In this document: positions 37,017 to 56,291 of the stretch, piece after piece
Position numbering within the stretch: position 1 is the first letter of the stretch
Layout of the letters: every line of letters starts with the position of its first letter
DNA from: Giardia intestinalis
Lineage: Eukaryota
DNA: 64,000 bases
Direction: 5' to 3' (one strand)
Assembly: GCA_000002435.2 (NCBI GenBank)
Contig: CM018789.1
Notes under the pieces: model-generated
The model's input: the letters and a program-made list of their open reading frames with translations, nothing else
What the model was told of the DNA's origin: nothing
Databases searched by the model: none
Position numbers and translations under genes: made by a program

Positions 37017-37826
37017 CTACCAGATTGCCGTCTCAGTCAGAAATGGTGGGCCTTGGAAACTCCCTGCTCCATCCTCGTCACAAGAGGGTGCAATCATATG
37101 GCAACTAGTGGCCAGTATCGAGAGGGTGTGGAGCCTTGGGAGGAACTCAACGGCCATATCATGGACTTTCTCAACGAGATGAGAAGGAAGGTCATAAAGA
37201 ATCAGTCTCTGCAACGACTGATGAAGGAGTCGGAAGTCTGGAACAGTTGTCAAATAGGTCAGAGGGCCAATTGTAAGACTTACTACCTCGTCAAGTCGCT
37301 CTAAAAGATCTGCAAGCAACTTATTTGTAAATGGCTGAGACTCATTGTAAAGTTCCACAATCTGCTGTGGGTAGTCCATGTTGCCTACTGCCTGTTCGCC
37401 AGGCTTCTTCACGACTTGGAACTGTAGGTTTCGTAGAGCTTGCAGACATAATGTCTCCTCTTTCTTCTGTGTAAAAAGGATGTCCGGTATAGTTGCAAGC
37501 TTGTCGGACAGCTTGGCACTCATAGATCGTCGCTCTAGATAAGATACTGAAGGGTTGGTTGGGGTATGCAGGGCAGCGAGCGCTGAAAGAGACTCATACG
37601 GCTGAATATATTGCTGATACTTTTTTTTCAGCATAGAGGAGGCAGAGGTCGCTGATTTCGACAGTCCAAGTGCTCGAGAAACAGCTGCCCAGGAGAAGTT
37701 GGACGATTGGGTTTTCAGTTGTTGCACCGCGTGACAAAGAGACTCCACGGTCACAGAGACCCCTCCAATGGTCCACTGCACTCCAGGATTTTTCTGAACA
37801 CATAGCTCACATATATTGTTGTCCAT
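37017..37826 (-). CDS. Hypothetical protein, 269 aa; possible Myb/SANT-like N-terminal domain (weak)
   Basis: ATG confirmed at 37826. The N-terminus W-x~30-W pattern (VQWTIGGVSVTVESLCHAVQQL...FSWAAVSRALGLSKSATSASSMLKKKY) resembles a Myb/SANT repeat. Confidence 0.4.
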   Translation of the reverse strand: MDNNICELCVQKNPGVQWTIGGVSVTVESLCHAVQQLKTQSSNFSWAAVSRALGLSKSATSASSMLKKKYQQYIQPYESLSALAALHTPTNPSVSYLERRSMSAKLSDKLATIPDILFTQKKEETLCLQALRNLQFQVVKKPGEQAVGNMDYPQQIVELYNESQPFTNKLLADLLERLDEVVSLTIGPLTYLTTVPDFRLLHQSLQRLILYDLPSHLVEKVHDMAVEFLPRLHTLSILATSCHMIAPSCDEDGAGSFQGPPFLTETAIW

Positions 37827-38683: not shown

Positions 38684-39009
38684 AGATTTTACAAATAGAC
38701 TTACTTCATTTATAACTGTATTTAGAGATGGAGGTAGCTAGTGGTTATGAATGTAGAGCTTTTCTGACACCTTTGCTTATCAAATCTGGTGCGCTCTCTA
38801 AGAGACTTTTATATTTAACCAATACGCGCGCATCGGTTACCGCTCGACCGTAGCCCTCCTCCTCTTGCCCCCTGCGAGGACGCCGCCACTGGCTAGACGC
38901 GGGCGTCGTTGCTGCCCGGCCTTCTCGTGACCTCCTTCCTTCATGAGGTGTGCTCACCCCTCTCCGTCAGCACCACTCTCTGACGCATACACAGCTTGTC
39001 CATCCGGCC

Positions 39010-40220
39010 CTTGAGAAGAGCCACATCACACGAGGAAGGGCGCCGTTTACTCGAGGAGAGAGGCGATTGCGTCGTGGCCATGCCTCCTTGCGATGTCGAG
39101 GGCGGTGGTGCCGGGCGGGAAGCCGAGCCACTCACGGGTGGTCTGCATGCCTTTCTCCTTGTCCATCAGGAGCCTCGCACACTCCAGGTGACCACCCTGC
39201 GCTGCATGCATGAGCGCTGTCCATCCGTTGTTAGTCTTCATGCCGTCTTCTTTGTCTACTAGAAGCCTCACGCAGTCCGAGCAACCGTTGTCGGCTGCGT
39301 GCATGAGGGCAGTCCACCCACTGTTGGCCCTCATCCCGCCTTCCTTGTCCAGTAGAGCCTCCGCACACTCGCGGCGCCCATACTGTGCTGCATACATTAG
39401 GGCGGTCTTCCCATCATCCGTTTTCATGCCACCCTCCCTCTCCAGGAGGAGCTGCACGGACTCCAGTTTGCCGCGCCGTGCTGCGTACATAAGGGCGGTG
39501 GTGCCGTTGTTCCTCCGTTTGCCGCCTTCCCTCTTCAGCAGGAACTTCACGCATTCCGGGTGGCCCCCGTACGCCGCCCGCATGAGCGCGGTCTCTCCAA
39601 GCTTATTCTGTGTGCTACCTTTCATCTTCAGCAGAACCTTCACGGCTCTCAGGTTTCCATACTCTGCTGCTGACATGATGTCGGTCTCGACGAAGCCGTA
39701 TTTCAGCAACAAAAAAGACGAGAGACTCAGCCCGCTCCTCCCTTGTTGGTGGTAAAACTCTGCGGCTTCATCGATGCTCCTATCAGAAGCAGACCCCTCG
39801 GTGTCCTGAGGGCGACGACTCGCCTCCGAATCCCTGAGCACACCACTCGACATTTTTAACTTCGTCTGCTTGCAGGAAGACACTGCCACGGAAACACACA
39901 CTTTGCTCTCTGCTTCACTGAAAACGGTTTGTCAACTGCTGTCCGAGCATCTCCGTGAGAGCCGCCGCGCTGGGTGGGCCGCCCGCTCACCGTCCGGGGT
40001 CCAAGGTTCAGATCTTGAAGCTCGAACTCGTGCCCTCATACAAGGCCTCCTCCCCTGTGGGTAGGCGGGTCTCACGCTCGTTCACTTCTCCAATCCAGGA
40101 CTCAGAACTCGAAGCTTGAGCGTCGAATGTCATGATGATTTACTCCACCCACCGGTTGCTTCCAGTGGTGTGCTGCTGGGGCCTGCCTGCAGGTATGGTC
40201 CAGAGATCCCACGGGCAAGC
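39010..40220. repeat. Left arm of a 1,211-bp perfect inverted duplication; it is the reverse complement of 43142..44352
   Basis: Boundaries were verified base by base at both ends: ...cttctcaag | g versus a on the outside, and gcttgcccgtggg... on the inside. The three encoded ORFs of 284, 181 and 64 aa are identical in both arms. Confidence 0.9.
39047..39901 (-). CDS. Ankyrin-repeat protein, 284 aa, copy A; identical to the 43461..44315 protein
   Basis: Seven ankyrin repeats (TALMRAAYGGHPECVKFLL, TALMYAARRGKLESVQLLL, TALMYAAQYGRRECAEALL, TALMHAADNGCSDCVRLLV, TALMHAAQGGHLECARLLM, TALDIARRHGHDAIASLLE). It is GC3-rich, and 319 bp of identical upstream sequence is included in the repeat. Confidence 0.75.
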   Translation of the reverse strand: MCVSVAVSSCKQTKLKMSSGVLRDSEASRRPQDTEGSASDRSIDEAAEFYHQQGRSGLSLSSFLLLKYGFVETDIMSAAEYGNLRAVKVLLKMKGSTQNKLGETALMRAAYGGHPECVKFLLKREGGKRRNNGTTALMYAARRGKLESVQLLLEREGGMKTDDGKTALMYAAQYGRRECAEALLDKEGGMRANSGWTALMHAADNGCSDCVRLLVDKEDGMKTNNGWTALMHAAQGGHLECARLLMDKEKGMQTTREWLGFPPGTTALDIARRHGHDAIASLLE

Positions 40221-43141
40221 TCTTGCTCAGTCCCTGACTAGTCCGGAGACGAGGGTTGGTCGTGTATCAATATAAGGACCACAGTGGTAGTAGGAGGAGC
40301 TATTGCGTTCCTCAGCTGTTCTACGGGCGTGTGCTCGGTCTAGGTGTGCACATAGGTCCTTTTGGAGATCAAGCCATCTCATGGACTCACTGGTCTACTA
40401 GGGTGCCTCTCCTTGCTCTCCCCTCACGGTGAGTGAAGCTCTGGTCTTTGTTGTCATTCTCAATACTGTCCATGTAGATCAGCAGCAGCTAGCGGGGCTT
40501 TCTCTTCTGGTTGGGATTCAACTCGGTTGTGTGTCCAGTCTTTGCACCTTCTCGGTCGTTGTCGACAGGTCCCAGGGGTGGATTCATTCAGCTGTCAGAA
40601 GTAGGATGACAGGAGACGGTCGCTCTGGGTGACCAGGCTTTCGGCCCGGCCCGTCTGATCAGCTTCGTCGGGTGCTCGTTCGCCTCTGCAGCCATGTGGG
40701 CGATGGCGAAGGCAGCCCGGACAGAGAGCTTCTCAACGTCCACGTGGAGCTCCTCGAGGTGCCCCTTGGACTGGGGTGGAGGGATCCGTCTGTCCCGTAG
40801 ATGATCGGGAGCGTCCCGTCCCTGTACTTCTTGACCTTCTCGTTGTAGTAGGCATCCATCTGGCGGAGCTGGATGACACCCACATCTATCGCCTTGCACT
40901 TGTCGACAAGCCAGATGTCGGGCTTCTGGTTCTGGTCGCTGAGGTGGCTGTGGGTCTCGACTTCCAGTTCCGGTTGAGCTTCCCCGAGACGCGGAGGCAC
41001 AGGCACGCGACGATCATGTCGTGCCTCGTGGTCGAGGGTCCACGCCGTGTGGCAGCCCGGGCAGGTGCCTCTTGTCTGCGCCATGATCGAGCCGCCCTTC
41101 TCCTTCAGGGCCCTTTCCTCCTCGGTCAGCACGCCGCCGCTCTGTCCGGAAGCTGGTGTGCGCGTGAGGAGGCGGTTGAAGTAGGCCCCTTCCCCTGCAG
41201 TGCCTGGCCGTTCACCGGCAGCTCCACCGGGTCTCTGGTCCCCTTGTTGACGTCCAGGGAGGCCCATACCCTCCGCAGCTCGTCGTGGTAGGATCCAGGC
41301 ATGAGCAGGCCCAGGCCGCCCTTCTCCTTCGGGTACGCCAGGAAGTCGACCAGGCGATCGCAGCTTCTGTTGGTTAGTGCTGAAGCCTTGTGCGACGCGT
41401 CTGTTGAGCTCCTCGTAGTCCGCCTTGTCCGATGTTACTTCGACCAGGGGGGCGTAGCTCACCATCGGGACCACGCAGTGACATCAGGATGAGCTTCTGG
41501 TGGGTGGTTATGGGGGCGTTCTCAATCTTCCTCAGGGCAGTCACAGCACCTGCGATGACCTTTGGAGCTTGCAGGAGTGGGGGACGCCGGGTGGTTGAGG
41601 AAGGTCACCTCCTCGCCCGCCATGGTGGACTTGCATTGTCGCTCCTGATCGTCAGGCCCATGGCGGCAGCCTCTGCTGTGGCCAGCTGTGTTATCACACC
41701 TGCTGGGTACCCTTCGTCGTGGAACGCCACGATGTCGTCCGCTAGGCAAGGAAGGTGATGCCCCTCTCCCTGAGGCGTCTCAGGAGGCGCTCGATGGCCA
41801 TGCAGAAGAGGAGCGTGCTGAGCGGGCTGCCCTGGGGGACGCCACAGACCTCGCACTTCACGTCCCGGCTGTGCCTCAGATCGAGGAAGTTCCTGATGTA
41901 GTCGATCAGGACCTTCAGGATGCCCGCCTCGTTCAGGGCTCTGATGACCTCCGCCTTCGGGAGCGAGTTGAAGGCATTCTTTGTGTCGAGGGAGACGGCG
42001 TGCTCCTGTCCTGCTGATGAGCTCGTGGGCCCTCCTCACACCTACCGCGTACGCGTTCTGCTTGAAGGCGATCTGCTCGCATGAGAGGTAGTTGGCATGC
42101 TTGATCAGCCCTTCAGCAGGACGCGGTGGAAGATGTTCGTGACCATCCGCCTATCGCGATCGGGGTATCCGTCGGACTCTTTCGGGATGAGGATCGCCCG
42201 GAACTCGAACATGGCCATCACGTCGGACATCGCCTCGGGGTGGGTGGTCAGCTCGTTGTACGCCTGCGTGAGGTACTTCACGAAGCTGTCGTTCTGCTTC
42301 ATCGCCTTGAGCTGGACCGGCCCGAGGCCAGACACGCCTGAGGCCTTCTTGTTGAGAGTCCTAACAGGGCCTTCCTCATTTCCTCCTCGGTTGCCGCTCC
42401 AGCCCGTCGAGCTCATCGATGGAGGGTAGTCAAGGCCAACGTAGCCTTCGGGGGGACGCACGGGTGTCTCATCAAGGGCGCGGAGAGCCTTAGCAACTGC
42501 TCCGAAGCTCAGCGCGTTGTTCACCCTGTTTGCTATCCGGCGTCTCGCCTTCTCGGGGTCTGGGTCTGCCTTACTCTGGGCCTGCTCTACTGTGTTGCTT
42601 GAGTCCTCTGGGGCTTCCCACCAGGGCGTTCAGGCCCCTGATAGCAGGGAGCGCGACCCCAGTCCCGGCCTGTTCGATGCTCGCGATCATGCGTGCCCCC
42701 TGGTGGATGAGCATAGCGAGCTCTGTCTGGTTCGGTACTGGGCCGGAATGATCAACTTGTCGTCGCCCAGCACTCTGTGTCTGTCATCGTTTGCTTCTCT
42801 CAGGTGCTCGGTTGGTTGCTTGGCGCTCTCGCACGGTAGGCCACAGAGCCAGCGTGTGTGTCCTGCTGAGAGAGTAAACGTCTTTGGAGTGGTCCCCCGA
42901 GTAGAGACTCACGGCTTGCTCTCTGGGTGTCCCTGAGGTACGATTTTGCATTCGTAGTGCAGATCTGGTCCTCGCGGGCTCTCCTTCGCCTCAGGTCCAG
43001 CTGTGCGCACGCCCACGGAACAGCCGAGGAACGCACAGACCCCAGATCCACAAACGGAGGGAGCTCCTCCTATCACCGTTGTGGCTATCGTTACGACCCG
43101 CGGCCAACCCTCATCTCCAGACTGGCCGGGAATTGAGCGAG
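40221..43141 (-). mobile_element. Degenerate ('dead') non-LTR retrotransposon remnant of the R2/CRE/NeSL/Genie clade, carrying reverse transcriptase, a CCHC zinc finger and a restriction-like (REL) endonuclease. Its sense is on the minus strand, with the 5' end near 43141 and the 3' end near 40221.
   Basis: RT motifs, read on the minus strand across three different frames: FRAILIPKESDGYP (42200-42160), LDTKNAFNSL, VCGVPQGSPLSTLLFCMAIE, then ITFLA[TAG]ADDIVAFHDEG. In the last of these the Tyr codon of YADD is a stop and the frame shifts (about 41740). A C-terminal CPGCHTAWTLDHE plus KPDIWLVDKCKAIDVGVI (PD..D...K REL-endo) lies at ~41050-40900. The body is GC-rich (~62%), unlike the flanks. All the ORFs in this interval (40659..41474, 41605..42039, 42105..42524 and others) are fragments. 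Confidence 0.75.
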
Positions 43142-44352
43142 GCTTGCCCGTGGGATCTCTGGACCATACCTGCAGGCAGGCCCCAGCAGCACACCACTGG
43201 AAGCAACCGGTGGGTGGAGTAAATCATCATGACATTCGACGCTCAAGCTTCGAGTTCTGAGTCCTGGATTGGAGAAGTGAACGAGCGTGAGACCCGCCTA
43301 CCCACAGGGGAGGAGGCCTTGTATGAGGGCACGAGTTCGAGCTTCAAGATCTGAACCTTGGACCCCGGACGGTGAGCGGGCGGCCCACCCAGCGCGGCGG
43401 CTCTCACGGAGATGCTCGGACAGCAGTTGACAAACCGTTTTCAGTGAAGCAGAGAGCAAAGTGTGTGTTTCCGTGGCAGTGTCTTCCTGCAAGCAGACGA
43501 AGTTAAAAATGTCGAGTGGTGTGCTCAGGGATTCGGAGGCGAGTCGTCGCCCTCAGGACACCGAGGGGTCTGCTTCTGATAGGAGCATCGATGAAGCCGC
43601 AGAGTTTTACCACCAACAAGGGAGGAGCGGGCTGAGTCTCTCGTCTTTTTTGTTGCTGAAATACGGCTTCGTCGAGACCGACATCATGTCAGCAGCAGAG
43701 TATGGAAACCTGAGAGCCGTGAAGGTTCTGCTGAAGATGAAAGGTAGCACACAGAATAAGCTTGGAGAGACCGCGCTCATGCGGGCGGCGTACGGGGGCC
43801 ACCCGGAATGCGTGAAGTTCCTGCTGAAGAGGGAAGGCGGCAAACGGAGGAACAACGGCACCACCGCCCTTATGTACGCAGCACGGCGCGGCAAACTGGA
43901 GTCCGTGCAGCTCCTCCTGGAGAGGGAGGGTGGCATGAAAACGGATGATGGGAAGACCGCCCTAATGTATGCAGCACAGTATGGGCGCCGCGAGTGTGCG
44001 GAGGCTCTACTGGACAAGGAAGGCGGGATGAGGGCCAACAGTGGGTGGACTGCCCTCATGCACGCAGCCGACAACGGTTGCTCGGACTGCGTGAGGCTTC
44101 TAGTAGACAAAGAAGACGGCATGAAGACTAACAACGGATGGACAGCGCTCATGCATGCAGCGCAGGGTGGTCACCTGGAGTGTGCGAGGCTCCTGATGGA
44201 CAAGGAGAAAGGCATGCAGACCACCCGTGAGTGGCTCGGCTTCCCGCCCGGCACCACCGCCCTCGACATCGCAAGGAGGCATGGCCACGACGCAATCGCC
44301 TCTCTCCTCGAGTAAACGGCGCCCTTCCTCGTGTGATGTGGCTCTTCTCAAG
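43142..44352. repeat. Right arm of the 1,211-bp perfect inverted duplication; it is the reverse complement of 39010..40220
   Basis: See the left arm. About 40 bp of roughly 80%-identical degenerate extension continues inward on both sides (40221-40262 against 43100-43141). Confidence 0.9.
43461..44315 (+). CDS. Ankyrin-repeat protein, 284 aa, copy B; identical to copy A
   Basis: The protein is identical to the 39047..39901 translation. Both copies are transcribed outward, away from the central retroelement. Confidence 0.75.
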   Translation: MCVSVAVSSCKQTKLKMSSGVLRDSEASRRPQDTEGSASDRSIDEAAEFYHQQGRSGLSLSSFLLLKYGFVETDIMSAAEYGNLRAVKVLLKMKGSTQNKLGETALMRAAYGGHPECVKFLLKREGGKRRNNGTTALMYAARRGKLESVQLLLEREGGMKTDDGKTALMYAAQYGRRECAEALLDKEGGMRANSGWTALMHAADNGCSDCVRLLVDKEDGMKTNNGWTALMHAAQGGHLECARLLMDKEKGMQTTREWLGFPPGTTALDIARRHGHDAIASLLE

Positions 44353-44899
44353 AGGCAGAGAGAAAATGTCAGATAGGTGGGTTTGTGTGTGCCGGAAAGC
44401 AGTACAATGGAAATGGTAGCATATAGATATATGGAGATAGCGATATTATTAATGGAGTATGGCGGCAATGCAGAGAATGACGGTGAATACTGGTAATCCA
44501 TAGGTCAGATTCTTAAAGGCTGAAAATCTAAGAGCTCTACTAGGACTGCTTAGCATAGTAGTACGAAGCTCGGATAAGAAATTATAAAGTAATTGATAAG
44601 AGTATAGAAATGAAGATTTACAGACAAGAAGAATAAACTAACGTAATAGCAAATACTACAGGACCATAAGCTGAGTGTATAGCATCATTAAGCAACAGAG
44701 TTCTGTTGGAAGCCAAGTCTACGCCATCACTATAATTTAATCAAGTGTGCTGCTACACATTATAAAAGGAAAGGAGACCTTTGTAGAACCTCCATTATTA
44801 TCACAGCGATCATGACAGTGAGATATCAGGTATTCTAGATCCACAAAGACTCACCAGACGAGTTGAACCTTTGAATGAATGATTTGCAAACACAGACCT

Positions 44900-46060
44900 T
44901 TATAAACGTCTACTAAGGCAAAGAGGCTCTGATAAGAGCGGGTATGCGTCACAGAAGCCAATGCTCTGTGCATACTCCAAACAACTCATCACTCCTTTGC
45001 CATTCCACCGAGAAGCAATGTTACGCTCATCAGGCCTATGTAGTGAAAAGTTCTGGTAGTGAGCTTCGTTGTATGCAGATAACAATGTGACACAAGCCAC
45101 AGATTTCATTAGCGTCGCATAACAGAGCGCGTTGTTATCAAAAACATCATGCTTGCTCAATTCCAACGTGCGAAACTGTTCAGGGCAGTATCGTATCAAG
45201 GCCCGTATGGAGTCCACTTGATCTTTGCAGCAAGCTATCATTATTGCCGTCTGTCCTAATCCGTTCGTTTTACCGAGAAAGCCAGGAGCCATTTCTATAA
45301 GTCTAGCAATGTCCTTAGTAACTGCAGCGCGCATCCAGCGATCGAGATCTAGTGCGTCAGATAGATTCTTGGCATGAGGATCATTTTCTAAATCTTGAGA
45401 AATACTCTCGAGGATGTCTAGTGCAAACAGGTGGTCGATAAAAACAGTTTTTGTACGATCTGTGTTTCGGACATGCCTTTCCAGAACAAAGAACATTCCT
45501 GATTCGTAAGTAGACAAGAACAAGGCCACATCAAAGTGCCGTGCCTCAACGGCAAGCATCAGAGCCGTCTTCCCAGATACCCAGCTCGACGGTTTAGTTC
45601 CGGAGCATTTTATGTGTGCTTCGGAATGCATTTGCAGGCATGCTTCATAAGGAGCAAGGCTTCTCACTAGCTCCAAGAACCCTCCTTGCGCTGCTAGCAT
45701 GAGCGCAGACATTCCATTAGAGTCCTGAAGGCCCAGAAGACATCTTCCGGCGGCTCCTTCTTCTGTCATTGCCCAATTTAGAAGTGTGCTGGCTAGCAAT
45801 TCCTTCTTGGCGCGTAGTAAATACATTAGTGCGCTAGTTCCTCGAGGAAACTCTTCGCCACCAAGGAGAGAATCATCGGTACGGACGGAAAGGTCGAAAG
45901 CGGAGACTCCTGCGAGCAAGTCAGCAGGGGTGGACACTTCTTTAAGATATAGAAAGAGATCGTTTTCACTGGCTAGTGCATCCAAGTGCCCGGTAGCTGG
46001 TAGAGCTTGCGCTGCTATTGCCATGTCCAAACATTCCAGAAAGTCTTCTTTGTCCTCCAT
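44900..46060 (-). CDS. Ankyrin-repeat protein ('protein 21.1' type)
   Basis: Ankyrin cores MSALMLAAQGGFLELVRSLAPYEA, TALMLAVEARHFDVALFLSTYESG, TAIMIACCKDQVDSIRALIRY. The track start is 46075 (ATG, MLDFK); the alternative ATG at 46060 (MEDKEDF) sits directly on the AT-rich palindrome. Both are in frame. Confidence 0.7.
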   Translation of the reverse strand: MEDKEDFLECLDMAIAAQALPATGHLDALASENDLFLYLKEVSTPADLLAGVSAFDLSVRTDDSLLGGEEFPRGTSALMYLLRAKKELLASTLLNWAMTEEGAAGRCLLGLQDSNGMSALMLAAQGGFLELVRSLAPYEACLQMHSEAHIKCSGTKPSSWVSGKTALMLAVEARHFDVALFLSTYESGMFFVLERHVRNTDRTKTVFIDHLFALDILESISQDLENDPHAKNLSDALDLDRWMRAAVTKDIARLIEMAPGFLGKTNGLGQTAIMIACCKDQVDSIRALIRYCPEQFRTLELSKHDVFDNNALCYATLMKSVACVTLLSAYNEAHYQNFSLHRPDERNIASRWNGKGVMSCLEYAQSIGFCDAYPLLSEPLCLSRRL

Positions 46061-46068
46061 TTTAAAAT
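46059..46068. promoter_or_regulatory. Perfect palindromic AT-rich initiator ATTTTAAAAT shared by two divergent genes
   Basis: On the plus strand the sequence reads ccATTTTAAAATccaacATGcag; on the minus strand it reads ttggATTTTAAAATGgagg. Start codons are at 46060/46075 (-) and 46074 (+). Confidence 0.5.
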
Positions 46069-46073
46069 CCAAC

Positions 46074-46583
46074 ATGCAGACACACTCAGTGGGATTTTCC
46101 TACCAGAATGACCCGTACAGCCTTTCCTCCCGCGCTCTAGCAACCAAAGCGGTAGCAACAATGGATGTTCCCGGTCAGCACCGAAAGCTCGCTGTCCCAG
46201 AACCCATAGATCTGGCGTCTGTAGACGAATGGGTAACTGTCTATGGGATTACTCCATCCAATCTTTCGCTGGCTCTTCACGCCCTTATGAACTTTGGGAC
46301 CATTATGAGGGTCAATTACGCCAATCACCATTTTATTCATGTCCGTTTCAGAGACGCCCTCTCCGCACAAGCCGCGGTTTCTGCGAGAGTAATCTGTCTC
46401 AGCAAGATCTCCATCATCGGCCTTATCCCCTGTCTTGTTAAGGACTTAGACAACGACATAACACTTTGTCACGAGCTTGACCTACCTCCTTATGTGTTGA
46501 CAAAAAAGACGCCCCCAGTGGTCAGTAATGGAATACTCGAGCGGATAATAAATTGGTTTGCGACGCTTCTTAAATCTGATTAA
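46074..46583 (+). CDS. Nup35/Nup53-like nucleoporin domain protein (MPPN/RRM-like fold), ~170 aa
   Basis: DEWVTVYGITPSNLSLALHALMNFGTIMRVNYANHHFIHVRFRDALSAQAAVSARVICLSKISIIGLIPCLVKD aligns with the Nup53 RRM block (D.WVTVFGFP......L..F..YG.I......GNWMHIRY.S...A.KAL...G.I......IGV.PC). The ATG at 46074 is in frame with a later ATG at 46161. Confidence 0.55.
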   Translation: MQTHSVGFSYQNDPYSLSSRALATKAVATMDVPGQHRKLAVPEPIDLASVDEWVTVYGITPSNLSLALHALMNFGTIMRVNYANHHFIHVRFRDALSAQAAVSARVICLSKISIIGLIPCLVKDLDNDITLCHELDLPPYVLTKKTPPVVSNGILERIINWFATLLKSD

Positions 46584-46748
46584 ATTGGGCCATTTATTTG
46601 CTACCTGCTCACACTATCTGCTTGTACTCAGCTAACGTACTCAACTAACGTATTCAGTTGATTGCTGTATGATCAGTGATGCGAAAGAGTTGGATTACAT
46701 GCCCGTCATGCTCATAGCGGAACATCAGATTTGGAGATTAAAAAACTA

Positions 46749-49700
46749 ATGCGTGCGAAGTCACTGTCACATCACAAACGGCCTGTTTCTGTGTTGAGCA
46801 CTCGAAGTGTGTCGCGCGCACCTCGCAGATTAGTGCGGGGCAGAGATCGCGATCCAAATCAAGATTACGTTCGATCCTTGGTGGCCAATCTCGAGTGCAA
46901 GAATCCTCTCGAGCTGACCACGGCGATTCGAGAGCTAACAGATATTTATGTGTCTAACAAGTATTCAGAGGTCTTTTTCTCCCGCGACGTGCCTACTAAA
47001 GTCTTTAAAGCAACCCTCCAAAACAGTCACAACGCTAAGATATTTGCTCTTGGGAAAACGTTTTTAAAATGCTTCATGGAGTCTTGCGCCTCGCAGTCTT
47101 CTTATATATTTGCGAACCTCAGTATTGATTCTAAAGAATATAGTAGAACCAAGTGTCTAGATTCTCTTCTCAATTACATTATTTCACAGCTCAGTGATAG
47201 TGAAATGTTATATAGTATTTATTTCTATGTGCTTGTGGGGGACATAATCTCAACACATCACGCTTGTGTGCCATTCGTGCACACACTATCACCAATTCAC
47301 TTCATTCAGGTGTATCTCAACAAGGTGTGTAACAACCTCGATATGTGCTCGCAGACAACCAACTCTCTCTCCATTGTGCAGTTGAATCAAATACATAGGG
47401 GCCGCGGCAATGCCAAGGACGGTGACACCAGCGATGGTAACGAATCGACCAACTCCGGGATGACAGTAGCCTCCAGTCTTTCTCTCGACGAGGATTGCAC
47501 TATGCCTACGGTTTGTAAGCAGTTGGATGATGCGCTATCGGAGATCTCGTCAGCACGGAGCATTCTCTCTAACTTTGCTGAGACGGTGTTTAGTAATTCT
47601 GTTCCAGGACAAAAAAGAAAACTGCGAAAAGAGACCGCCTCATATGGCAAGCTTCCTTTGATTAATACTGTTCGCTCGGAGGGTAGCAGTATGGTGTCCG
47701 ACCGCTCATCCATCGAAATTAACAACAGTCAGCACTTGGACTCTGATGATAACGAGGAAGAAAGTGGCTATTATTCTCAGTCTAACAATGGTGACTCTAA
47801 TACCAACTTAAATAGTGACAGATCAAGAGACTTTGGCGAGGATTTGTTCGACGAAAACGATAGGGAGGAGCGACAACCCACTCCACTTGACCACCAAGAA
47901 TCAGCAGTCTTTGTCTCACCACGTACCTGCAATCAAGAACCTAGTCTACACGGCACACAGGCATCCACTGAATTGGCTAAAGACTTACAAAAACAAAGTC
48001 ATGCAGGAGTGAAAGAGCCATCTCAAGATGTGAATATAAGAAATCACTCAAGGTCTTCTTGCAGCAGAAGCAGCGCGTCATTTTGTGAGAAGGATCGCTT
48101 GCTAGAGCTCCCAGCGCTAGGTGATTGCATTCCTGAGATCCCACAACCAGAGCATAAGGATGAGAGCGTCAGGGGACGACCACCTGTCACGAGAGGAGTC
48201 AAGGTCAGACTCCCCCCTATGGTGCATGACCAACGGAATACCTCGAAAGAAACTGGAGCTTACGACCCATTACTAAATGACGCGCTTACCCAGGAATCAT
48301 CTGCGTCTGCGATTCTAACGCCATTTAACTTGGGAACTATATCGGAGGCCAAAGTCTCGTCTGCCGAGCTACAGATGGTGCAAGGAGAAGAGGCTCAATC
48401 CGTCCTAGGCTCTGCAGTCCCCGTTCTTAACCTTCACTTGCCGTTAGCTGTCAATCCTGAACGAGATCCTGTTAATGAGAGCTCGTCTCCTGCACGGCAA
48501 GTGCTCACAACCGCGCGGCGACAGTCTAGGTATATGATTCACAGCACTCAAGCTGGTAAGGGGCGAACGAATGCTGTTGCCTATGGGCAAGCTTCACACA
48601 ACAGAGCCGTCGCTCCTGGGGTCAAGAATCGCTCCTCCTCAAACCTCCTCATCCCGCCTTCCACACCAAATGGAACTCTTTCTAACATCGGGGAGCCATT
48701 TTCTGGAGCAGCTCGTCAATTTTACCCGCAAAAGGACAAGTCTGCTGACTTTACACATGCGGAGCAAATTGAGAAGGTCGAAAGACGTGCAATCTGTGGC
48801 CCATTGGCTTTGGCATCTAAAACGAAACCTTGCAGGCCCTCTATCGTTCCGCTTCTATCACTGAGTTGTCCAGCTCAACAAGAGAAAGACCCTCCTGAAA
48901 TTACCACCCAATCAACACCAAAGCTTTCTCAACAAAAGTTTCCCGGTCTCAGTCTAGGATTATCCTTAGATTTGAAGTCTGTTCACAATCGGGAGAGTAC
49001 AGCACCTTCTATGAGTCATCGAGGACATCCAGGACGATTCGGTGACACAGATTCTCCTGCCACTGGTCAGTCCTACACCGGACTTAATCAGGAGACGGCC
49101 GATTTTGTGTTTGATAAGTATCTTCAGGTTCTTTCTGAACGGCGGAAGGGAATTCCGGAACTCGTGGATGTTGCTAACCGTATTGGCGAGTATACCTTTA
49201 TGCGGGACTATCCCCTGCTATGTTCTCTCAGTCGCGATAAAACCTATTCACACGGGTCCGCGAACTTAACAGCGCGTTCCACACACAGTAGCCTTTCAGT
49301 GTTGACTACATCTACTTCCCAAGCTGTTCAGGCGAATTACATCGTCAATCACCTCTATGTAACCCATAACTATTACACTTATTTAAAGGAACACAAAAGA
49401 CGATACCTTCTCTACAAGCTATTTGGTTCCACTCATACCAGGGATTTGTCTGACTATGAATTTAACTTCTCTATTATGTCAACCGAGCTTTTGCCCCTGG
49501 TGCGTCTTCAGAGAGTGGATCTATCTAGGGAGGATGTCATTCGCCTCGGTGTTAGCTATATTCTCTACCACTGCATCAGGAACCTTTCAAATATAACGCT
49601 GAGGTACTTCCCCAATATCCTGCCAAGCATATGCACAGACCTTATTTCACTGCATCAGCGTAAGACTGGCTTCATACCTGCAGTGGTTCTAGCGTTGTCA

Positions 49701-52700
49701 ACCCTCGTCAACCAAATACACAGCGCAAGCCAAACGCGCATAAGATCAGACTGGATGCGACTATTGTTTAAGATGTATAAGTATGCTAAGCTTACCTATG
49801 ACTACATAGATGTGGACACGGGGGAGTGTGTGCCTGAAAGTGAGCTGAATGTCTGCCACGGGGGCGTAGAAGTCACAACTGAAACTATGCAGGAAAACTT
49901 TCTAGTGGAGAACACTGTTTCCCCGGCAACAGGCCTGCCAAAGCGAAAGATTGGAAAGAGGCATGCAGTAACTCTTCCAGACGACATGTTCTTACTCCAA
50001 CGCCTCGAGGCTCAGCGGCGCATGTACTGCATAGATATGTATACTCTGTCTTTGCGGTTAAGTACTTTAGTATTGATGCCTTATTCCATCTCTGCTTGTG
50101 ATGATATCGCATGTTACTTGGCAGTCATTGCTGACCGGCTGGCCACTTCGCATGCAAACCCGATGGTGCGGGGGCTTGTGACAACGGCGCTTCTTCCATC
50201 GCTTCTAAAAGTCGTGGAACTCTTTCAGACAAGACGAATCAATTCTCGCCTTCACTATATTCTTATTGTCCAACGAATCCTTGAAGTTATGAGCCTGCTA
50301 GCGTCGGACTCTTTTGTTCGTGCCCCTAGCCTTGTGACATCCCCTGAGCCTCCGGTGGTTAGAGCATTGGTCAATAACAACGTCTGCTACACCACCGATC
50401 GATCAATGCAGAACATTGATAACATGCTGTGCGACGCGCTGGTGTTCAACGAGACTAATCTTAAGTGGCTAAGACGCTATAGCTGTCTGATTTTCCTAAA
50501 CACACGCATAAAGGATGAGCTCTCGGGAATGTATTACAGCAAGCCTCAGTGTCAGCACTCCTTTGAGGTCTACAAGATTAAGTTCTCCAAGTATATTATC
50601 ACCATGATTAGACTTCTCCGGTACCACTTCCTCAAGGTGGCTCAGCAGCTCTCCACAAACACAAAATTAGAGACCACAAAGATGTTCACTGCTGCAACTC
50701 ATAATAGCACCCACAGCTCTCACATCGCTTCGCGCCTGGTTGATAGTACGAGAAGGCAAAGCTTTAAGCTAGCAACGAGCTCGTTCCATGCTCCAATATA
50801 TATCACCAAATATGCCAATCTACCAGAGAATGACTATCCACGAGGATTGAAGGAGATTGCAGAGTACACTCAGGAGACACGGCTGAAGAATTTACCTATG
50901 ACTTCGCTGGCTACCTTGTGCACTCTAGAGAGCCATGCCAATATTTTCACAACGGCACGACTGGACCACATCCCCCTAACGCGCTGTGATGAAAGTCATC
51001 GTTTTAATGTGAAGGAGCTTCTCAGAAACAACGACTGCCACAGTATCATCGGCACATGGTCATTCTTATTTGACTTCGAAACAGGAGTTTTCCCACAGTA
51101 TCTTATGCTGGCCAAAAATGGCTCGGATGTTCAGGTTCAGACAGGTGGTGTCAACTTCTCCAAACACTTGGGGCTTTTTGACGATTCTGACCTTCTCAAG
51201 GCTATGCCAACCGCAGAGACGGTGGCAGAGGCCCGAACTCAGCACACGTCAGCAAAGGAGCTCCTGACAGAGCTTTCCAAAAATGCGCTCTCTGCACCTA
51301 CAAGCAGAAAGTCTGTCCTCTACGTCCTTTATACGCTCGCTGAGTTCTTCGCCATTGAAAACGTTGATCTTTATATAAAGCCTACAGACTTGCGAAAATT
51401 CATATCGTTTCATTACAAGTCGTTCTTGAAGCTGTACAACGACTGTGAGGTAGATCTGATTGAATGTATTTTAAGTACCAACAACAGCGTGAGTCTTCTC
51501 GACCTGTGCAATGGGCACCTCAATGTACTTTGCTCTCTCATTCAGATGGATTCTCCAAACACCCGGCAATATTTCTATGAACTTCGCATCATGCAATTTC
51601 TTATTCTGCAGCTGTCAGTCGACAATATTGATCAGAATAGTGGCTGGCAGAGAACAATTGCAGAAAGCGACGCTTCTACACTCCAGAAGATAAACCTTGC
51701 TAAGGCAGAGGCCGATAGAGAATGGGCTATAAAGGTGGCATCTGCACAAGCCCAAAAATTGCTACCTCCTATCTCTATGCCATATTTACGGTCTGATAAC
51801 CCCACAGCCACTCAAGATCAGGCCAAGAAACCTTCGGGAACCAGCCCCACCAAGACTAGTGTGTTCTTCAGCACACCGACACGTCCTTTGAAGCAAACTG
51901 CTCATAGTACCGGATCTCACATTCTAGCGAATAAGGATTATGAACTGGGTGATCTCAGAGCCAATGCTAACGCAGTATCTAGTATGATAGAGGAAGATGT
52001 GGAAGACAAGGTAGTAACTACCGTAAATGGGAGTCAGGAGTCCAAGAAGAGTGCTGCAACGTCACTTTCCACTAAGCCATCAGTGTCTGCAATCTTAACC
52101 CCTGGATTGGAAACCAAGCTGATCACAGACAACAGCTCCACAATGGACCTATTGGAAAAGTCAGAGATCACCGACTGCAACATCAGCGATCAGCTGCAAG
52201 CGACAGCAAAGCAAAAGCAACCAGTTGAGGTAATTAATGGAGATGCCATTCCATCTATAGACACTCTATTTGACTATCATGGATCTGCTGTCATACACCC
52301 CCTAAAGCTCCCCAGCACGGAATCTGAATTGATGGGCTCTCAGCAGTGTACTGACAGAAAAACACCATTAGAGGGCATCAAGCACAAGAGTAGTCTGGTG
52401 ATCACTGCAGTTCCAAAGCGCTCAACCCACATTTACGACGACGATGACAGCGATAGTTGTTGGGACGACGAGGCACAGAAACGCGGCATAGAGTTGCCAA
52501 AACGAGACTCTAAACAGCGGAGGGCTAACGAGCTGGAGCCACCTAAGGCTGATAAGCCCAGTGACGCCTACTCATCTCATGGAGACTCAAGTTTTAGTGA
52601 CTCTAGTGACCTACCACGAGCTCCTCCTGCCACTGTGCCCAAGACCTTCGGATTCACTCTCAAATTACCAGCCGTTAAGGTTTCAATCGATAAGCAGAAC

Positions 52701-55700
52701 GTAGTACTGGAAAAGGAGTCCAATTCTCAGAACATAGCTGGTGGCATTTCACAGTTTGAAGCCGCTGCCGATTCCCTAAACCCCAAATTCCATTTAGTTT
52801 TAGGGAATAGAATCGCAGCCAAACTAGAAACTGCACACTCTCTTCCACTAGCCACGGAAGGTTGCCAGGCTCCGGAGCCGGTTTTAGAAGTGGAGCAAAC
52901 AGATACTGAGGGTTTGAAACAGGGCAAGCAGAGGCAAAAGCAGCCAAAGGCAACCAAGTCAGTGCTTAAGAGGACCAAGTCCACCTTTTCTAGCAGTATC
53001 AGCCTGGCTGGCTTTACCTCTGAATTTGTTCGCGATACCGATGCGAAAAATAACAAGGAACAGCAGCGCTTTCTTACTCACAGCGCAACCGTGGCAAAGC
53101 TCAGTGCTCAAAATCGGCAGACGAGCACTGCCCAGGGTAGTCCAGACAAATGTCGCATCCAGCCGGTTTTACAGCATGGAGTACAGGATCCTCTCCTCGT
53201 TGCTCAAGAGTCGACGCTCTCCACGCTCTCCGGTTACAGAGACTTTGAGCATGGAAATCCATCAGAGCTGGAGGCCTCTGATCTTTTGGAGTACTCTCAG
53301 GCCAGCGCTTCAATAGAAAAGGCGCTTCACCGACCATTATATATCCACGAGGAGCTACACTATACTATTCTGCGAATTGTTTTGCTATTGATCATTGTCC
53401 CCGAGACTGGTACTCTCGATCCGATGTACTGTTCCCAGTTTCCAGCCAATGATGGCATGCCAAACATTCTATGGATCCTTCACCACCATCTTAATCATCC
53501 GAGAAACGAGAAATTCGCCCTTAGGTTAATATCTTCCGACATTTCACCTGCTGCTAAGCGTCTCTTACGCCTCACCTGCTATACTCTGTTTGACTCTACC
53601 TTGTATCCCATCAAGGACGCCACTAAGTTTTCACTCATGGCACAGGGTGCCTATGGATCTGTTTATTCTGGGAATGTATCGCTGGTTACAGAGGACAATC
53701 AGACCAACCAATCATTCCTGACTCCAGTAGCGGTCAAAATCCAGGACAGATCGAAGTCAATTTATGACCGGTGCGTCCTTCACGATATCTTTAACGAAAT
53801 AACTGTAATGGAACGGTTAGCCAATTATAGCGGAGTTAGTCGAATGTATGATTACGGAGTTACGAAGGATGGATACTACATCATCATGCACAAGTACGTT
53901 ACCAGTCTCAGGGATCTCCGTCTCAAACTCTTCGACGACCCAGCCACACTGCAATCCAACCAATTGCTGTATCATCCGGAGCCAAAGTATAAGCATCTGC
54001 CTATATACGGCCACGAACTGTCTTACATGAAGTACATCAGAATCTATCTTCTGATATTCATAAAATTCCTCCGACACCTTGAGTACCTACATACTGCTGG
54101 AGTCAATCACTATGATATAAAGGCCGACAACGTATTCTTTGATCCCAGAACAGTTCAGTGGTACTCTAAACTAGCTAGACTGGATGAAAATAGCAGGCCT
54201 GCCGGTACTGTTGACACTGGGACGCCTATTACAAAGATTTTCCTTGATAAGATCTTCACCGATTACCAGGCTGTACCATCGTACGAACTGCTTCCTTTTC
54301 GCATTGCAATAGCGGACTTTGGAGAGTCGATGGTCTTTTCAGATGAAGAGAGCTCCTACACACTCATCAATAAGGGGACAGAATATAATAAATCGCCAGA
54401 GATGCTGCTCTCGGCAAACATGGTAGCCCAAACCCGGTCTAACTTTGATCGGCGTCGTCCAAAGGGCGCTGGAAGCTCTTCAGACATCTGGTCTGCTGCA
54501 TGCTTCCTTTACGAGCTATTGACAGGTGACATCTTGTTCTTTGACTCTGACTGGATCCGCTTCTTTATCAGAGTCACGAAGGATAGCTATCAGAGCAACG
54601 TGCGAGCAAGGGCACGTGACAAGTCAGCTGCCCAATCATTTACATTTGATCATTCAGGCAAGTTTGCTCAGCTTTACAGGGGAGTTTCGCTTTCTCCAGA
54701 GAAGAAGGCCATGTTGGGGAACTGCCAGCCAATAATAGACCTTCTTGAGTTTTGCTTGGTACCAAACCCTACTCTGCGCCCCCAAATAAGAGACGTTATC
54801 GCCATGACCGAGCACATATTAAAGGTCTATTTTCCAGAAACCTACATGTATAAGCCCGAGTGTTACTATGTGGAGCCGGCGAAGGCGGAGCCATTCATCA
54901 GTAGCAGCTTTTGTTTCAGCATTATCGGAAGTGTTAATGACTGCCTGGTCAATCCTAGCGATGCCCTTGCACCAAAGCTTTCTATTGTCAAAAAGCAATG
55001 CGAACAATCCCCGAACTCTGTACAGAAGCAATTGGAGAGCCATGCTGCTATACCCAGCTACCTTCTTGCGACGGCTCAGCTCACTAGCCCTGTGTTGGGT
55101 CAACCCTGTGCCACGCTTCCTGTCAAAGTGATGCCTCCTGCCACTAATATTATAGATGGGTTTCTGTGGATAGGGTCTGTTTCCGTCTTGCGGCATGCAG
55201 AGCATCTTCTGGCATATAACGTTACGTCTGTGATTGATTGCCTAACGACCTCTCTAGAGCAGTCCATGGAGACCAAGCGAGTTATAGAAATGACCACTAT
55301 CCACTATTATAAGCTCCCCCTTGTTCTCACACAAATTATTAATCCCACGTCCAACAAGACGCTCTTTCTGGGTTCTCCTCGCGAAAGTACTCCGGGTTTA
55401 CCTAAGGCAGAGTTCCTGCGATACTCAGCCGCCCTGGACAGCGTGCTGGACTTCCTGCGCAGAACGGTCACCCATGGAGGCAGGTGCCTGCTTTACGACG
55501 AGAACGGTACCGGCCTCTCTGCTGCAGTGGCAATAGCCATGCTCGTGGAATTTAGATCTCTGTCTCTGTTTGCTGCTTACCTCCACGTCAGGAACCTCAG
55601 GCCTCACATTGCACCTCCCCTTCCGTTCTTAGATTTCCTGCACTACTGGTTCTTATTCAGAGTTCGACCAGGAATTAAGAACAAAGACTTTCTCTATGCG

Positions 55701-56291
55701 AACTCTTCGTACTTCAGACAAATTCTTTTCAAGCCTACACCGACATTTGAGCAACTTATTAATCTAAGGATCAGTAAGGCGCGATATCAGTGTCTTTGTG
55801 GCAAGATCTTCTTTATAGTCAAGCCAGACGTGAAGCGGATGCCGACATTTGTGCTTTGCAACTGTGCATATACACCGCAGCTTTCCAAGGACTCCCCAGG
55901 AACACCTGGAAAGGCCCTGAGCCAACCAGCCTGTCCTACTCTATCGTGCCGATCCATAATCAATCTATTCATGTCTATTTACGGATTGCGTCTCGGACGA
56001 ATCCTTTGGGCCTTTCTTCCTGCTCGAGACGTTGTCTCTAATTGGAAGACAGACACGATGGGAATAAGGAACATTCCCTCAACACCCCACGCCATCGAGA
56101 GAGCCTCAGCAGACATGTATAACAAGTTTACGGGCCTCGACAATATGCGCGCTCCAATCAATCGCATACCCCGACAGAGAAATTGGGAGCTCTATTACTG
56201 CAAGATTTGCGGGCTGGTGACCCATGCTGCTGATGCTTCCTCTCCAGATGCAGTACAGCTGGCTATTCTGGCAAACTTTTCCCCGAAGTGA
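46749..56291 (+). CDS. Giant multidomain protein (~3,180 aa). It has a long N-terminal S/N/T-rich and helical region, a C-terminal Ser/Thr protein kinase domain that looks catalytically competent, and a dual-specificity-phosphatase (DSP) fold lacking the catalytic Cys and Arg (pseudophosphatase).
   Basis: Kinase (about 53600-54800): LMAQGAYGSVYSG (Gly loop), VAVKIQD (Lys), LHTAGVNHYDIKADNVFF (catalytic loop with Asp), IADFGES (DFG), KSPEML (APE-like). DSP-like (about 55130-55560): IDGFLWIGSVSVLRHAEHLLAYNVTSVIDCL ... GGRCLLYDENGTGLSAAVAIAMLVEF. The signature VHCxAGxxRS reads LYDENGTGLS here, so Cys is Asp and Arg is Leu. The track start at 46731 is TTG; the first ATG is 46749, preceded by gagattaaaaaacta. 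Confidence 0.7.
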   Translation: MRAKSLSHHKRPVSVLSTRSVSRAPRRLVRGRDRDPNQDYVRSLVANLECKNPLELTTAIRELTDIYVSNKYSEVFFSRDVPTKVFKATLQNSHNAKIFALGKTFLKCFMESCASQSSYIFANLSIDSKEYSRTKCLDSLLNYIISQLSDSEMLYSIYFYVLVGDIISTHHACVPFVHTLSPIHFIQVYLNKVCNNLDMCSQTTNSLSIVQLNQIHRGRGNAKDGDTSDGNESTNSGMTVASSLSLDEDCTMPTVCKQLDDALSEISSARSILSNFAETVFSNSVPGQKRKLRKETASYGKLPLINTVRSEGSSMVSDRSSIEINNSQHLDSDDNEEESGYYSQSNNGDSNTNLNSDRSRDFGEDLFDENDREERQPTPLDHQESAVFVSPRTCNQEPSLHGTQASTELAKDLQKQSHAGVKEPSQDVNIRNHSRSSCSRSSASFCEKDRLLELPALGDCIPEIPQPEHKDESVRGRPPVTRGVKVRLPPMVHDQRNTSKETGAYDPLLNDALTQESSASAILTPFNLGTISEAKVSSAELQMVQGEEAQSVLGSAVPVLNLHLPLAVNPERDPVNESSSPARQVLTTARRQSRYMIHSTQAGKGRTNAVAYGQASHNRAVAPGVKNRSSSNLLIPPSTPNGTLSNIGEPFSGAARQFYPQKDKSADFTHAEQIEKVERRAICGPLALASKTKPCRPSIVPLLSLSCPAQQEKDPPEITTQSTPKLSQQKFPGLSLGLSLDLKSVHNRESTAPSMSHRGHPGRFGDTDSPATGQSYTGLNQETADFVFDKYLQVLSERRKGIPELVDVANRIGEYTFMRDYPLLCSLSRDKTYSHGSANLTARSTHSSLSVLTTSTSQAVQANYIVNHLYVTHNYYTYLKEHKRRYLLYKLFGSTHTRDLSDYEFNFSIMSTELLPLVRLQRVDLSREDVIRLGVSYILYHCIRNLSNITLRYFPNILPSICTDLISLHQRKTGFIPAVVLALSTLVNQIHSASQTRIRSDWMRLLFKMYKYAKLTYDYIDVDTGECVPESELNVCHGGVEVTTETMQENFLVENTVSPATGLPKRKIGKRHAVTLPDDMFLLQRLEAQRRMYCIDMYTLSLRLSTLVLMPYSISACDDIACYLAVIADRLATSHANPMVRGLVTTALLPSLLKVVELFQTRRINSRLHYILIVQRILEVMSLLASDSFVRAPSLVTSPEPPVVRALVNNNVCYTTDRSMQNIDNMLCDALVFNETNLKWLRRYSCLIFLNTRIKDELSGMYYSKPQCQHSFEVYKIKFSKYIITMIRLLRYHFLKVAQQLSTNTKLETTKMFTAATHNSTHSSHIASRLVDSTRRQSFKLATSSFHAPIYITKYANLPENDYPRGLKEIAEYTQETRLKNLPMTSLATLCTLESHANIFTTARLDHIPLTRCDESHRFNVKELLRNNDCHSIIGTWSFLFDFETGVFPQYLMLAKNGSDVQVQTGGVNFSKHLGLFDDSDLLKAMPTAETVAEARTQHTSAKELLTELSKNALSAPTSRKSVLYVLYTLAEFFAIENVDLYIKPTDLRKFISFHYKSFLKLYNDCEVDLIECILSTNNSVSLLDLCNGHLNVLCSLIQMDSPNTRQYFYELRIMQFLILQLSVDNIDQNSGWQRTIAESDASTLQKINLAKAEADREWAIKVASAQAQKLLPPISMPYLRSDNPTATQDQAKKPSGTSPTKTSVFFSTPTRPLKQTAHSTGSHILANKDYELGDLRANANAVSSMIEEDVEDKVVTTVNGSQESKKSAATSLSTKPSVSAILTPGLETKLITDNSSTMDLLEKSEITDCNISDQLQATAKQKQPVEVINGDAIPSIDTLFDYHGSAVIHPLKLPSTESELMGSQQCTDRKTPLEGIKHKSSLVITAVPKRSTHIYDDDDSDSCWDDEAQKRGIELPKRDSKQRRANELEPPKADKPSDAYSSHGDSSFSDSSDLPRAPPATVPKTFGFTLKLPAVKVSIDKQNVVLEKESNSQNIAGGISQFEAAADSLNPKFHLVLGNRIAAKLETAHSLPLATEGCQAPEPVLEVEQTDTEGLKQGKQRQKQPKATKSVLKRTKSTFSSSISLAGFTSEFVRDTDAKNNKEQQRFLTHSATVAKLSAQNRQTSTAQGSPDKCRIQPVLQHGVQDPLLVAQESTLSTLSGYRDFEHGNPSELEASDLLEYSQASASIEKALHRPLYIHEELHYTILRIVLLLIIVPETGTLDPMYCSQFPANDGMPNILWILHHHLNHPRNEKFALRLISSDISPAAKRLLRLTCYTLFDSTLYPIKDATKFSLMAQGAYGSVYSGNVSLVTEDNQTNQSFLTPVAVKIQDRSKSIYDRCVLHDIFNEITVMERLANYSGVSRMYDYGVTKDGYYIIMHKYVTSLRDLRLKLFDDPATLQSNQLLYHPEPKYKHLPIYGHELSYMKYIRIYLLIFIKFLRHLEYLHTAGVNHYDIKADNVFFDPRTVQWYSKLARLDENSRPAGTVDTGTPITKIFLDKIFTDYQAVPSYELLPFRIAIADFGESMVFSDEESSYTLINKGTEYNKSPEMLLSANMVAQTRSNFDRRRPKGAGSSSDIWSAACFLYELLTGDILFFDSDWIRFFIRVTKDSYQSNVRARARDKSAAQSFTFDHSGKFAQLYRGVSLSPEKKAMLGNCQPIIDLLEFCLVPNPTLRPQIRDVIAMTEHILKVYFPETYMYKPECYYVEPAKAEPFISSSFCFSIIGSVNDCLVNPSDALAPKLSIVKKQCEQSPNSVQKQLESHAAIPSYLLATAQLTSPVLGQPCATLPVKVMPPATNIIDGFLWIGSVSVLRHAEHLLAYNVTSVIDCLTTSLEQSMETKRVIEMTTIHYYKLPLVLTQIINPTSNKTLFLGSPRESTPGLPKAEFLRYSAALDSVLDFLRRTVTHGGRCLLYDENGTGLSAAVAIAMLVEFRSLSLFAAYLHVRNLRPHIAPPLPFLDFLHYWFLFRVRPGIKNKDFLYANSSYFRQILFKPTPTFEQLINLRISKARYQCLCGKIFFIVKPDVKRMPTFVLCNCAYTPQLSKDSPGTPGKALSQPACPTLSCRSIINLFMSIYGLRLGRILWAFLPARDVVSNWKTDTMGIRNIPSTPHAIERASADMYNKFTGLDNMRAPINRIPRQRNWELYYCKICGLVTHAADASSPDAVQLAILANFSPK

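Follow-up and report, generated by a model that had tools for sequence, protein, structure and literature searches.

GL50803_3598, the gene at 46074..46583 of the window (the whole stretch of 64,000 nucleotides of Giardia intestinalis DNA analyzed here), very probably encodes a minimal, single-copy orthologue of Nup35/Nup53/Nup40, a dimerizing and membrane-anchoring nucleoporin of the inner ring, when all parts of this reading are taken jointly. It is a real gene whose domain assignment is correct and which is already known and annotated. The analyses described here support the integrity of the gene, the family of its RNA recognition motif (RRM), the predicted fold, an amphipathic helix at the C terminus, and the conservation of the protein and of its gene order. 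As read from the sequence and from an AlphaFold2 model, the protein has a minimal layout comprising an apparently disordered N terminus of 50 residues, a Nup35-type RRM, a linker of 28 residues, and a predicted C-terminal amphipathic helix. The corresponding features are as follows.

46074..46583, plus strand: coding sequence of GL50803_3598, the probable Giardia Nup35/Nup53 orthologue; an intact ORF of 169 codons followed by TAA
46074..46223, plus strand: N-terminal region, residues 1–50, predicted to be disordered (AlphaFold2 pLDDT 36–40 for residues 1–40)
46224..46445, plus strand: Nup35-type RRM (MPPN), residues 51–124, assigned from PF05172, hhalign, AlphaFold2, and Foldseek
46446..46529, plus strand: linker, residues 125–152, predicted to be disordered (pLDDT 33–35), which holds LPPY and P148
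46530..46571, plus strand: predicted C-terminal amphipathic helix, residues 153–166 (GILERIINWFATLL), assigned from the hydrophobic moment, AlphaFold2/DSSP, and alignments

Annotation and Previous Reports

The encoded protein matches XP_001706400.2 / KAE8301584.1 (P0052) at 169/169 residues (100% identity), and the name of that entry is "Nup53/35/40-type RNA recognition motif-containing protein" [Giardia intestinalis]. In G. muris, the orthologue TNJ27575.1 bears the same Nup53/35/40 name, the P15 and GS orthologues are listed in UniRef as "RRM Nup35-type domain-containing protein," and ESU36926.1, a 186-residue model of GL50803_3598, is named "Putative NUP-type RNA recognition protein." Among the models, only the superseded 2007 version, XP_001706400.1 (186 residues), is designated "hypothetical protein GL50803_3598." The gene has also appeared in print. 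Table 2 of Neumann, Lundin and Poole (PLoS One 2010, PMC2951903) records Nup35 as present in Giardia lamblia, and Table S1 of that paper gives GL50803_3598 / gi:159112342 as the candidate. The entry "nup35_giardia" in the supplementary alignment Nup35new.aln (PMC2951903) contains the strings ...HFIHVRF... and ...KTPPVVSN--GILERIINWFATLLKSD, which identify it as the protein encoded at 46074..46583, and Table 3 attributes the detection of Nup35 in excavates to two earlier screens as well, those of Mans et al. and Bapteste et al. The first-pass annotation, made from the letters of the DNA alone, had presented this gene as a candidate unannotated pore component that would probably be listed only as hypothetical; that claim does not stand, because RefSeq and GenBank already have a name for the identical protein, which was published as a Nup35 candidate in 2010.

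Literature searches with the identifier GL50803_3598 found no papers, and those on Giardia nucleoporins, Nup35, and Nup53 found comparative-genomic mentions only, with no localization or interaction study among them. GL50803_3598 is one of the few recognizable inner-ring components of the poorly characterized diplomonad nuclear pore. Its remaining value is as a reagent: a tagged form would serve as a pore marker and as a bait for the Giardia nuclear pore complex (NPC), and its stripped-down architecture makes it naturally suited to testing which modules of Nup53 are indispensable.

Gene Model, Start Codon, and Putative Shared Promoter

Three further features bear on the 5' end of the gene.

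46023..46025, plus strand: upstream in-frame ATG, used as the start in the 186-residue models XP_001706400.1, ESU36926.1, and EFO65248.1
46058..46069, no strand assigned: A/T-rich element CATTTTAAAATC, between the divergent ankyrin and Nup35 start codons
44900-46075, minus strand: divergent ankyrin-repeat gene, with its ATG at 46060..46058

The start at 46074, which the first-pass annotation had also chosen, is that of the current RefSeq model, and the earlier size estimate of ~170 residues is correct for this ORF, which is much shorter than opisthokont Nup53. The coding sequence differs at two positions, both synonymous, from contig AHGT01000036.1 of the assemblage A2 isolate DH, and the window is therefore from another assemblage A isolate. 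Public annotations of the gene contain at least six different N termini, giving proteins of 140, 169, 184, 186, 199, and 256 residues. The reading frame is open upstream as far as 45786, running antisense through 288 nucleotides of the ankyrin coding sequence to make an ORF of 265 residues, and this explains the 184-, 186-, 199-, and 256-residue models of older annotations. The ATG at 46023 lies inside the divergent ankyrin coding sequence and is probably not the true start of the Nup35 gene. A comparative DNA alignment shows this ATG and the open frame to be conserved across Giardia contigs, but that conservation is uninformative because the third codon positions coincide with those of the ankyrin coding sequence on the opposite strand and the ATG is one-half of a CATG palindrome where the ankyrin gene has a conserved Met codon. 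We favor 46074 over 46023 because an invariant AT-rich element lies just upstream of it, the current RefSeq model uses it, and the G. muris protein lacks the extension. An internal start at Met30, as in the 140-residue model, was rejected because other assemblages do not have Met at residue 30 and residues 1–29 are conserved.

The upstream extent of the open frame and the range of annotated lengths, from 140 to 256 residues, are features that a spurious ORF, arising as a chance antisense extension of the ankyrin reading frame, might also display. Such an origin is exceedingly improbable for a sequence that is almost wholly outside the ankyrin coding sequence in its 169-residue part, contains a significant Pfam domain, and is 80–93% identical in other assemblages and 40% identical over its full length in G. 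muris (TNJ27575.1, 172 residues). It is refuted for residues 1–169, and only the extension N-terminal of 46074 is doubtful.

There is one Nup35-type RRM gene per Giardia lineage or genome, and the gene order ankyrin (minus), Nup35 (plus), kinase (plus) recurs in contigs from two more divergent Giardia lineages. The ankyrin and Nup35 ATG codons are separated by an intergenic gap of 13 nucleotides (46061-46073). The element CATTTTAAAATC is invariant and corresponds to columns 69–80 of alignment A1, which comprises the window and four Giardia contigs from two divergent lineages; gene calls in those four contigs place the ankyrin and Nup35 genes 13–16 nucleotides apart. Giardia genes have very short 5'-UTRs and AT-rich initiators, and it is on this known promoter style that we base the proposal that CATTTTAAAATC is probably a shared initiator/promoter of the two genes.

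Genomic Neighborhood

The composition and gene density of the window fit a compact protist genome. Downstream of GL50803_3598, on the same strand, 46731-56291 encodes a protein of 3186 residues with a protein-kinase domain at residues 2327–2691 (E = 1.2e-16) and a weak dual-specificity-phosphatase-like segment at residues 2898–2970, which is sub-threshold at 21 bits as compared with a cut-off of 33.5; other Giardia lineages have this gene at the syntenic position. Upstream there is a GC-rich island (GC 0.57–0.60 versus ~0.47 around it) that contains a perfect inverted repeat, the arms of which (38996-40220 and 43142-44366) are each 1225 nucleotides long, 100% complementary, and separated by a spacer of 2921 nucleotides. 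Both arms contain the same ankyrin-repeat ORF of 284 residues (Ank_2, E = 2.6e-51), which is on the minus strand at 39047..39901 and on the plus strand at 43461..44315. In the draft DH assembly, the first nucleotide of contig AHGT01000036.1 corresponds to ~43880 of the window, inside the right arm, which suggests that the inverted repeat broke the DH assembly. The spacer, 40221-43141, has a GC content of ~0.60 and contains fragmentary minus-strand ORFs of 139–271 residues that are mutually out of frame. A Pfam scan of these fragments gave no match; one of them includes "...FRAILIPKESDGYPDRDRR...", which has a faint likeness to a reverse-transcriptase motif, and the spacer may represent a mobile element that has degenerated. 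An ORF on the margin of the island, 37017-37826 on the minus strand, encodes a protein of 269 residues in which an ARID/BRIGHT DNA-binding domain narrowly exceeds the Pfam cut-off (E = 8.1e-6).

Family and Fold of the RRM

Pfam assigns residues 51–124 to PF05172 (RRM_Nup35) with an E-value of 1.5e-10 and a score of 41.3 bits as compared with a gathering cut-off of 24 bits. PF14605 (Nup35_RRM_2) scores just under its cut-off, and PF00076 (RRM_1) gives no match in the Pfam scan of the ORF even at E ≤ 10. An hhalign comparison between an alignment of the Giardia clade and a profile of non-diplomonad Nup35 gave a probability of 99.3% and an E-value of 4.3e-20 over residues 51–128. When PDB sequences were searched with phmmer, the meaningful matches were all Nup35/Nup53 chains, with E-values of 4e-6 to 1e-5 for 4lir, 7tbj, 1wwh, 8ozb, and 7r5j and 1.7e-3 for 9hcj. 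The motifs that had been named from inspection of the translation, WVTV(Y/F)G, (F/W)(I/M)H(V/I)R(F/Y), and L(S/Q)A(Q/R)xA(V/L)S, are all seen in the phmmer alignment, and the core quoted with them is exactly residues 51–120. The original call of a Nup35/Nup53-type MPPN domain as opposed to a generic RRM is therefore upheld by the assignment of PF05172, the absence of PF00076, and the agreement of hhalign and Foldseek; the Pfam check that had been proposed for it did not return a generic RRM.

An exhaustive HMMER search against 1.84 billion representatives gave 25 matches at E ≤ 1e-3. Two of these, P0006 (E = 9e-11) and P0007 (E = 9e-9), are long repeat proteins from bacteria in which 4–10 short stretches are matched and were discarded as repeat-summed artefacts. 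The others are Nup35-type RRM proteins from many eukaryotes, most of which end in a C terminus of the type ...S-x-x-K-x-x-E/D-x-x-F-G-W, and a profile search with the alignment of the HMMER matches retrieves named NUP35/NUP53 proteins from fish and an ascidian.

The AlphaFold2 model, for which a 17-sequence alignment was the input, has pLDDT values of 80–88 for residues ~50–122 and a β-α-β-β-α-β fold in this region. Its elements are strands at residues 53–57, 77–84, 87–92, and 114–119 and helices at residues 61–71 and 95–104. In a Foldseek search of the PDB, ranks 1–9 are all occupied by Nup35/Nup53 chains, some of them from the NPC maps of human and Dictyostelium, with a best E-value of 1.4e-6. 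The isolated RRM crystal structures 4lir, 1wwh, and 8ozb superimpose with TM scores of 0.76–0.84 and rmsd values of 1.5–1.9 Å at 28–31% identity. Canonical RRMs appear at rank 10 and below, with E-values of at least 3e-4 (~100-fold worse) and identities of 13–22%.

An RRM-like fold, together with distant Foldseek matches that include U2AF1, NONO/SFPQ, and PABPN1, would also be expected of a generic RNA-binding RRM protein that is unrelated to the pore. This reading is already disfavored, and we regard it as highly improbable, given that RRM_1 is absent from the Pfam results and that every structural match above the canonical RRMs is to Nup35 or Nup53. The nucleic acid-binding motifs point in the same direction. 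Canonical RRM RNA-binding proteins have RNP1 ([RK]G[FY][GA][FY]...) and RNP2 consensus motifs, but the Giardia domain has the noncanonical sequences WVTVYG and HFIHVRF at the RNP2 and RNP1 positions, respectively, as in Nup35.

The RRM of Xenopus Nup53 is a dimerization module; with the double substitution F172E/W203E, the protein becomes monomeric, its liposome binding falls by 70%, and it is unable to support NPC assembly (PMC3474928). When mapped by residue count in the phmmer alignment, Phe172 and Trp203 of the Xenopus protein correspond to Tyr57 and Phe87 of the Giardia protein, both of which are aromatic. The position equivalent to Trp203 is occupied by Leu in G. muris.

N-terminal Region and Linker

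The RRM is preceded by only 50 residues. In alignment A4, which comprises 7 Giardia and related sequences, Gly7, Tyr10, and Pro33 are invariant, the first two of these forming a short motif ("VGFSY", GxxY). The ~170-residue N-terminal region of animal and fungal Nup53 has no counterpart in Giardia and is gapped in alignment A2. In vertebrates, the N-terminal region of Nup53 bears Nup93-binding and N-terminal membrane-binding sites, and the long disordered N terminus of the opisthokont proteins, with its Nup93/Nic96- and membrane-binding segments, is absent from the Giardia protein. The missing region makes the mechanism less similar in its details, but membership of the RRM family is unaffected. 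Within the linker, Pro148, which is located just before the C-terminal helix, is invariant in alignment A4 and nearly invariant in alignments A2 and A3. The linker may be a candidate site for a short linear motif that binds a scaffold nucleoporin.

Predicted C-terminal Amphipathic Helix

The first-pass annotation had reported no obvious C-terminal amphipathic helix, and on this point the analysis gives the opposite result. When helical hydrophobic moments are computed with the Eisenberg scale for windows of 11 and 14 residues, the maximum for the entire protein (0.69–0.72) falls at residues 154–167. When GILERIINWFATLL was shuffled, 54 of 10,000 shuffles reached the observed moment. The C-terminal segment is likewise the one with the top moment in all G. 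intestinalis assemblages, in G. muris, and in one of two more distant relatives, and its conservation extends to G. muris and two related sequences. DSSP assigns a helix at residues 153–166 of the AlphaFold2 model, although the confidence of the model is low here (pLDDT ~45). Both a MAFFT alignment and the published alignment (PMC2951903) place the GILERIINWFATLL segment on the C-terminal motif of Nup35 (human ...SLVSKAMEYMFGW).

The corresponding motif of Xenopus Nup53 binds and tubulates membranes and is needed for the insertion of pores into the intact interphase envelope (PMC3474928). The terminal Trp of the Xenopus protein matters for membrane deformation, whereas Giardia Nup35 ends in ...LLKSD and the terminal FGW is absent. 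A 24-residue HMM constructed from 19 non-diplomonad Nup35 C termini, which was searched against 765 six-frame segments of the window and the diplomonad orthologues, gave the Giardia ORF only 0.7 bits (E = 28), below many decoys, and the hhalign alignment stops at residue 128, short of the helix. As judged from sequence and model, the Giardia helix is a positional and physicochemical equivalent of the Nup53 C terminus, and homology is plausible; in view of the low score of the motif HMM, the end of the hhalign alignment, and the missing FGW, it is statistically undemonstrated.

Proposed Function

By analogy with Nup53, we infer that GL50803_3598 dimerizes, binds membranes and a partner protein, and resides at the nuclear pore. 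The mechanism that we propose takes its RRM dimer with two membrane helices from the data on Xenopus Nup53 (PMC3474928). The Giardia RRM would act as a homodimerization module and not as an RNA binder, as in the vertebrate and yeast proteins, and the dimer would present two C-terminal amphipathic helices for insertion into the curved membrane of the pore. The disordered segments (with Gly7/Tyr10, LPPY, and Pro148) might use short linear motifs to hold a scaffold nucleoporin, for which the Nup155/Nup170 candidate GL50803_112408 is the most plausible choice, and the protein would thereby help to anchor and assemble a reduced inner ring into an intact nuclear envelope. In the 2010 inventory, GL50803_112408 is the Giardia Nup155 candidate, and no candidates for Nup93 or Ndc1 were found (PMC2951903). 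Nup155 is therefore the only recognizable candidate partner in that inventory, and the absence of Nup93 and Ndc1 from it fits a Nup35 that lacks the long N-terminal region.

An alternative is that the protein is associated with the nuclear envelope or lamina and merely has a Nup35-type RRM, without being a structural nucleoporin of the inner ring. The precedent is in T. brucei, where TbNup65 and LAP73 are both Nup35-type RRM proteins: TbNup65 is anchored by a transmembrane domain, whereas LAP73 has no obvious anchor (PMC11018031). LAP73 also lacks inner-ring interactions and was judged not to be an NPC orthologue (PMC11018031). The absence from the Giardia protein of the long N-terminal region of other Nup35 proteins would be consistent with a similar role, as would the result of Neumann et al. 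(2010, PMC2951903), who found neither a Nup93 nor an Ndc1 candidate in Giardia. We nevertheless consider this alternative unlikely. Giardia has a single Nup35-type RRM protein per genome, its RRM scores best against bona fide Nup35, and at its extreme C terminus it has an amphipathic helix preceded by Pro, which is the layout of Nup53 and unlike LAP73 with its lack of an obvious membrane anchor. It is the C-terminal helix and the single-copy status that argue for the Giardia protein as a true Nup35 orthologue.

If GL50803_3598 is this orthologue, a more specific proposal is that the minimal Nup35 of Giardia and its close relatives is the principal membrane anchor of a reduced NPC in which neither Ndc1 nor Nup93 has been detected. 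We put this forward tentatively and consider it rather less probable than its converse. If true, the minimal Nup35 would be the smallest module sufficient for coupling the inner ring to the membrane and for inserting pores into an intact envelope.

Comparison with Known Nup35/Nup53 Proteins

Two proteins of 181–190 residues, encoded by L007 96-641 (Logan SRR31929897) and P0067 (Logan), are 27–31% identical to Giardia Nup35 and share the minimal layout of GxxY motif, RRM, Pro148, and C-terminal amphipathic helix; they are probably from other diplomonads or related metamonads. The same minimal architecture is found in G. muris TNJ27575.1 and in two relatives from Logan assemblies, P0009 and P0067; these proteins have 172–190 residues and identities of 27–40%. 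As compared with G. intestinalis, the G. muris protein has a three-residue insertion in the β2-β3 loop.

Vertebrate NUP35/Nup53 (human and mouse MPPN/RRM structures 4LIR and 1WWH, and Xenopus Nup53) shares the Nup35-type RRM, with 28–31% identity and an rmsd of ~1.5 Å relative to the Giardia model. The likeness extends to aromatic residues at the dimer-surface positions (Tyr57 for Phe172 and Phe87 for Trp203) and to an amphipathic segment, preceded by Pro, at the extreme C terminus. The differences are in length (169 residues as compared with ~320–326), in the linker between the RRM and the helix (~28 residues as compared with ~60–70), and in the C terminus itself (LLKSD in place of FGW).

Yeast Nup53/Nup59 and S. 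pombe Nup40 have an RRM of the same PF05172 family (5uaz and 3p3d are among the Foldseek matches), and they also have a C-terminal amphipathic helix as a membrane anchor. Yeast Nup53 and Nup59 are a pair of paralogues and are much longer, with FG repeats and segments that bind Kap121 and Nic96, whereas the Giardia protein is short and single copy. In contrast with TbNup65, which uses a transmembrane domain, and with LAP73, Giardia Nup35 appears to have kept the amphipathic-helix solution.
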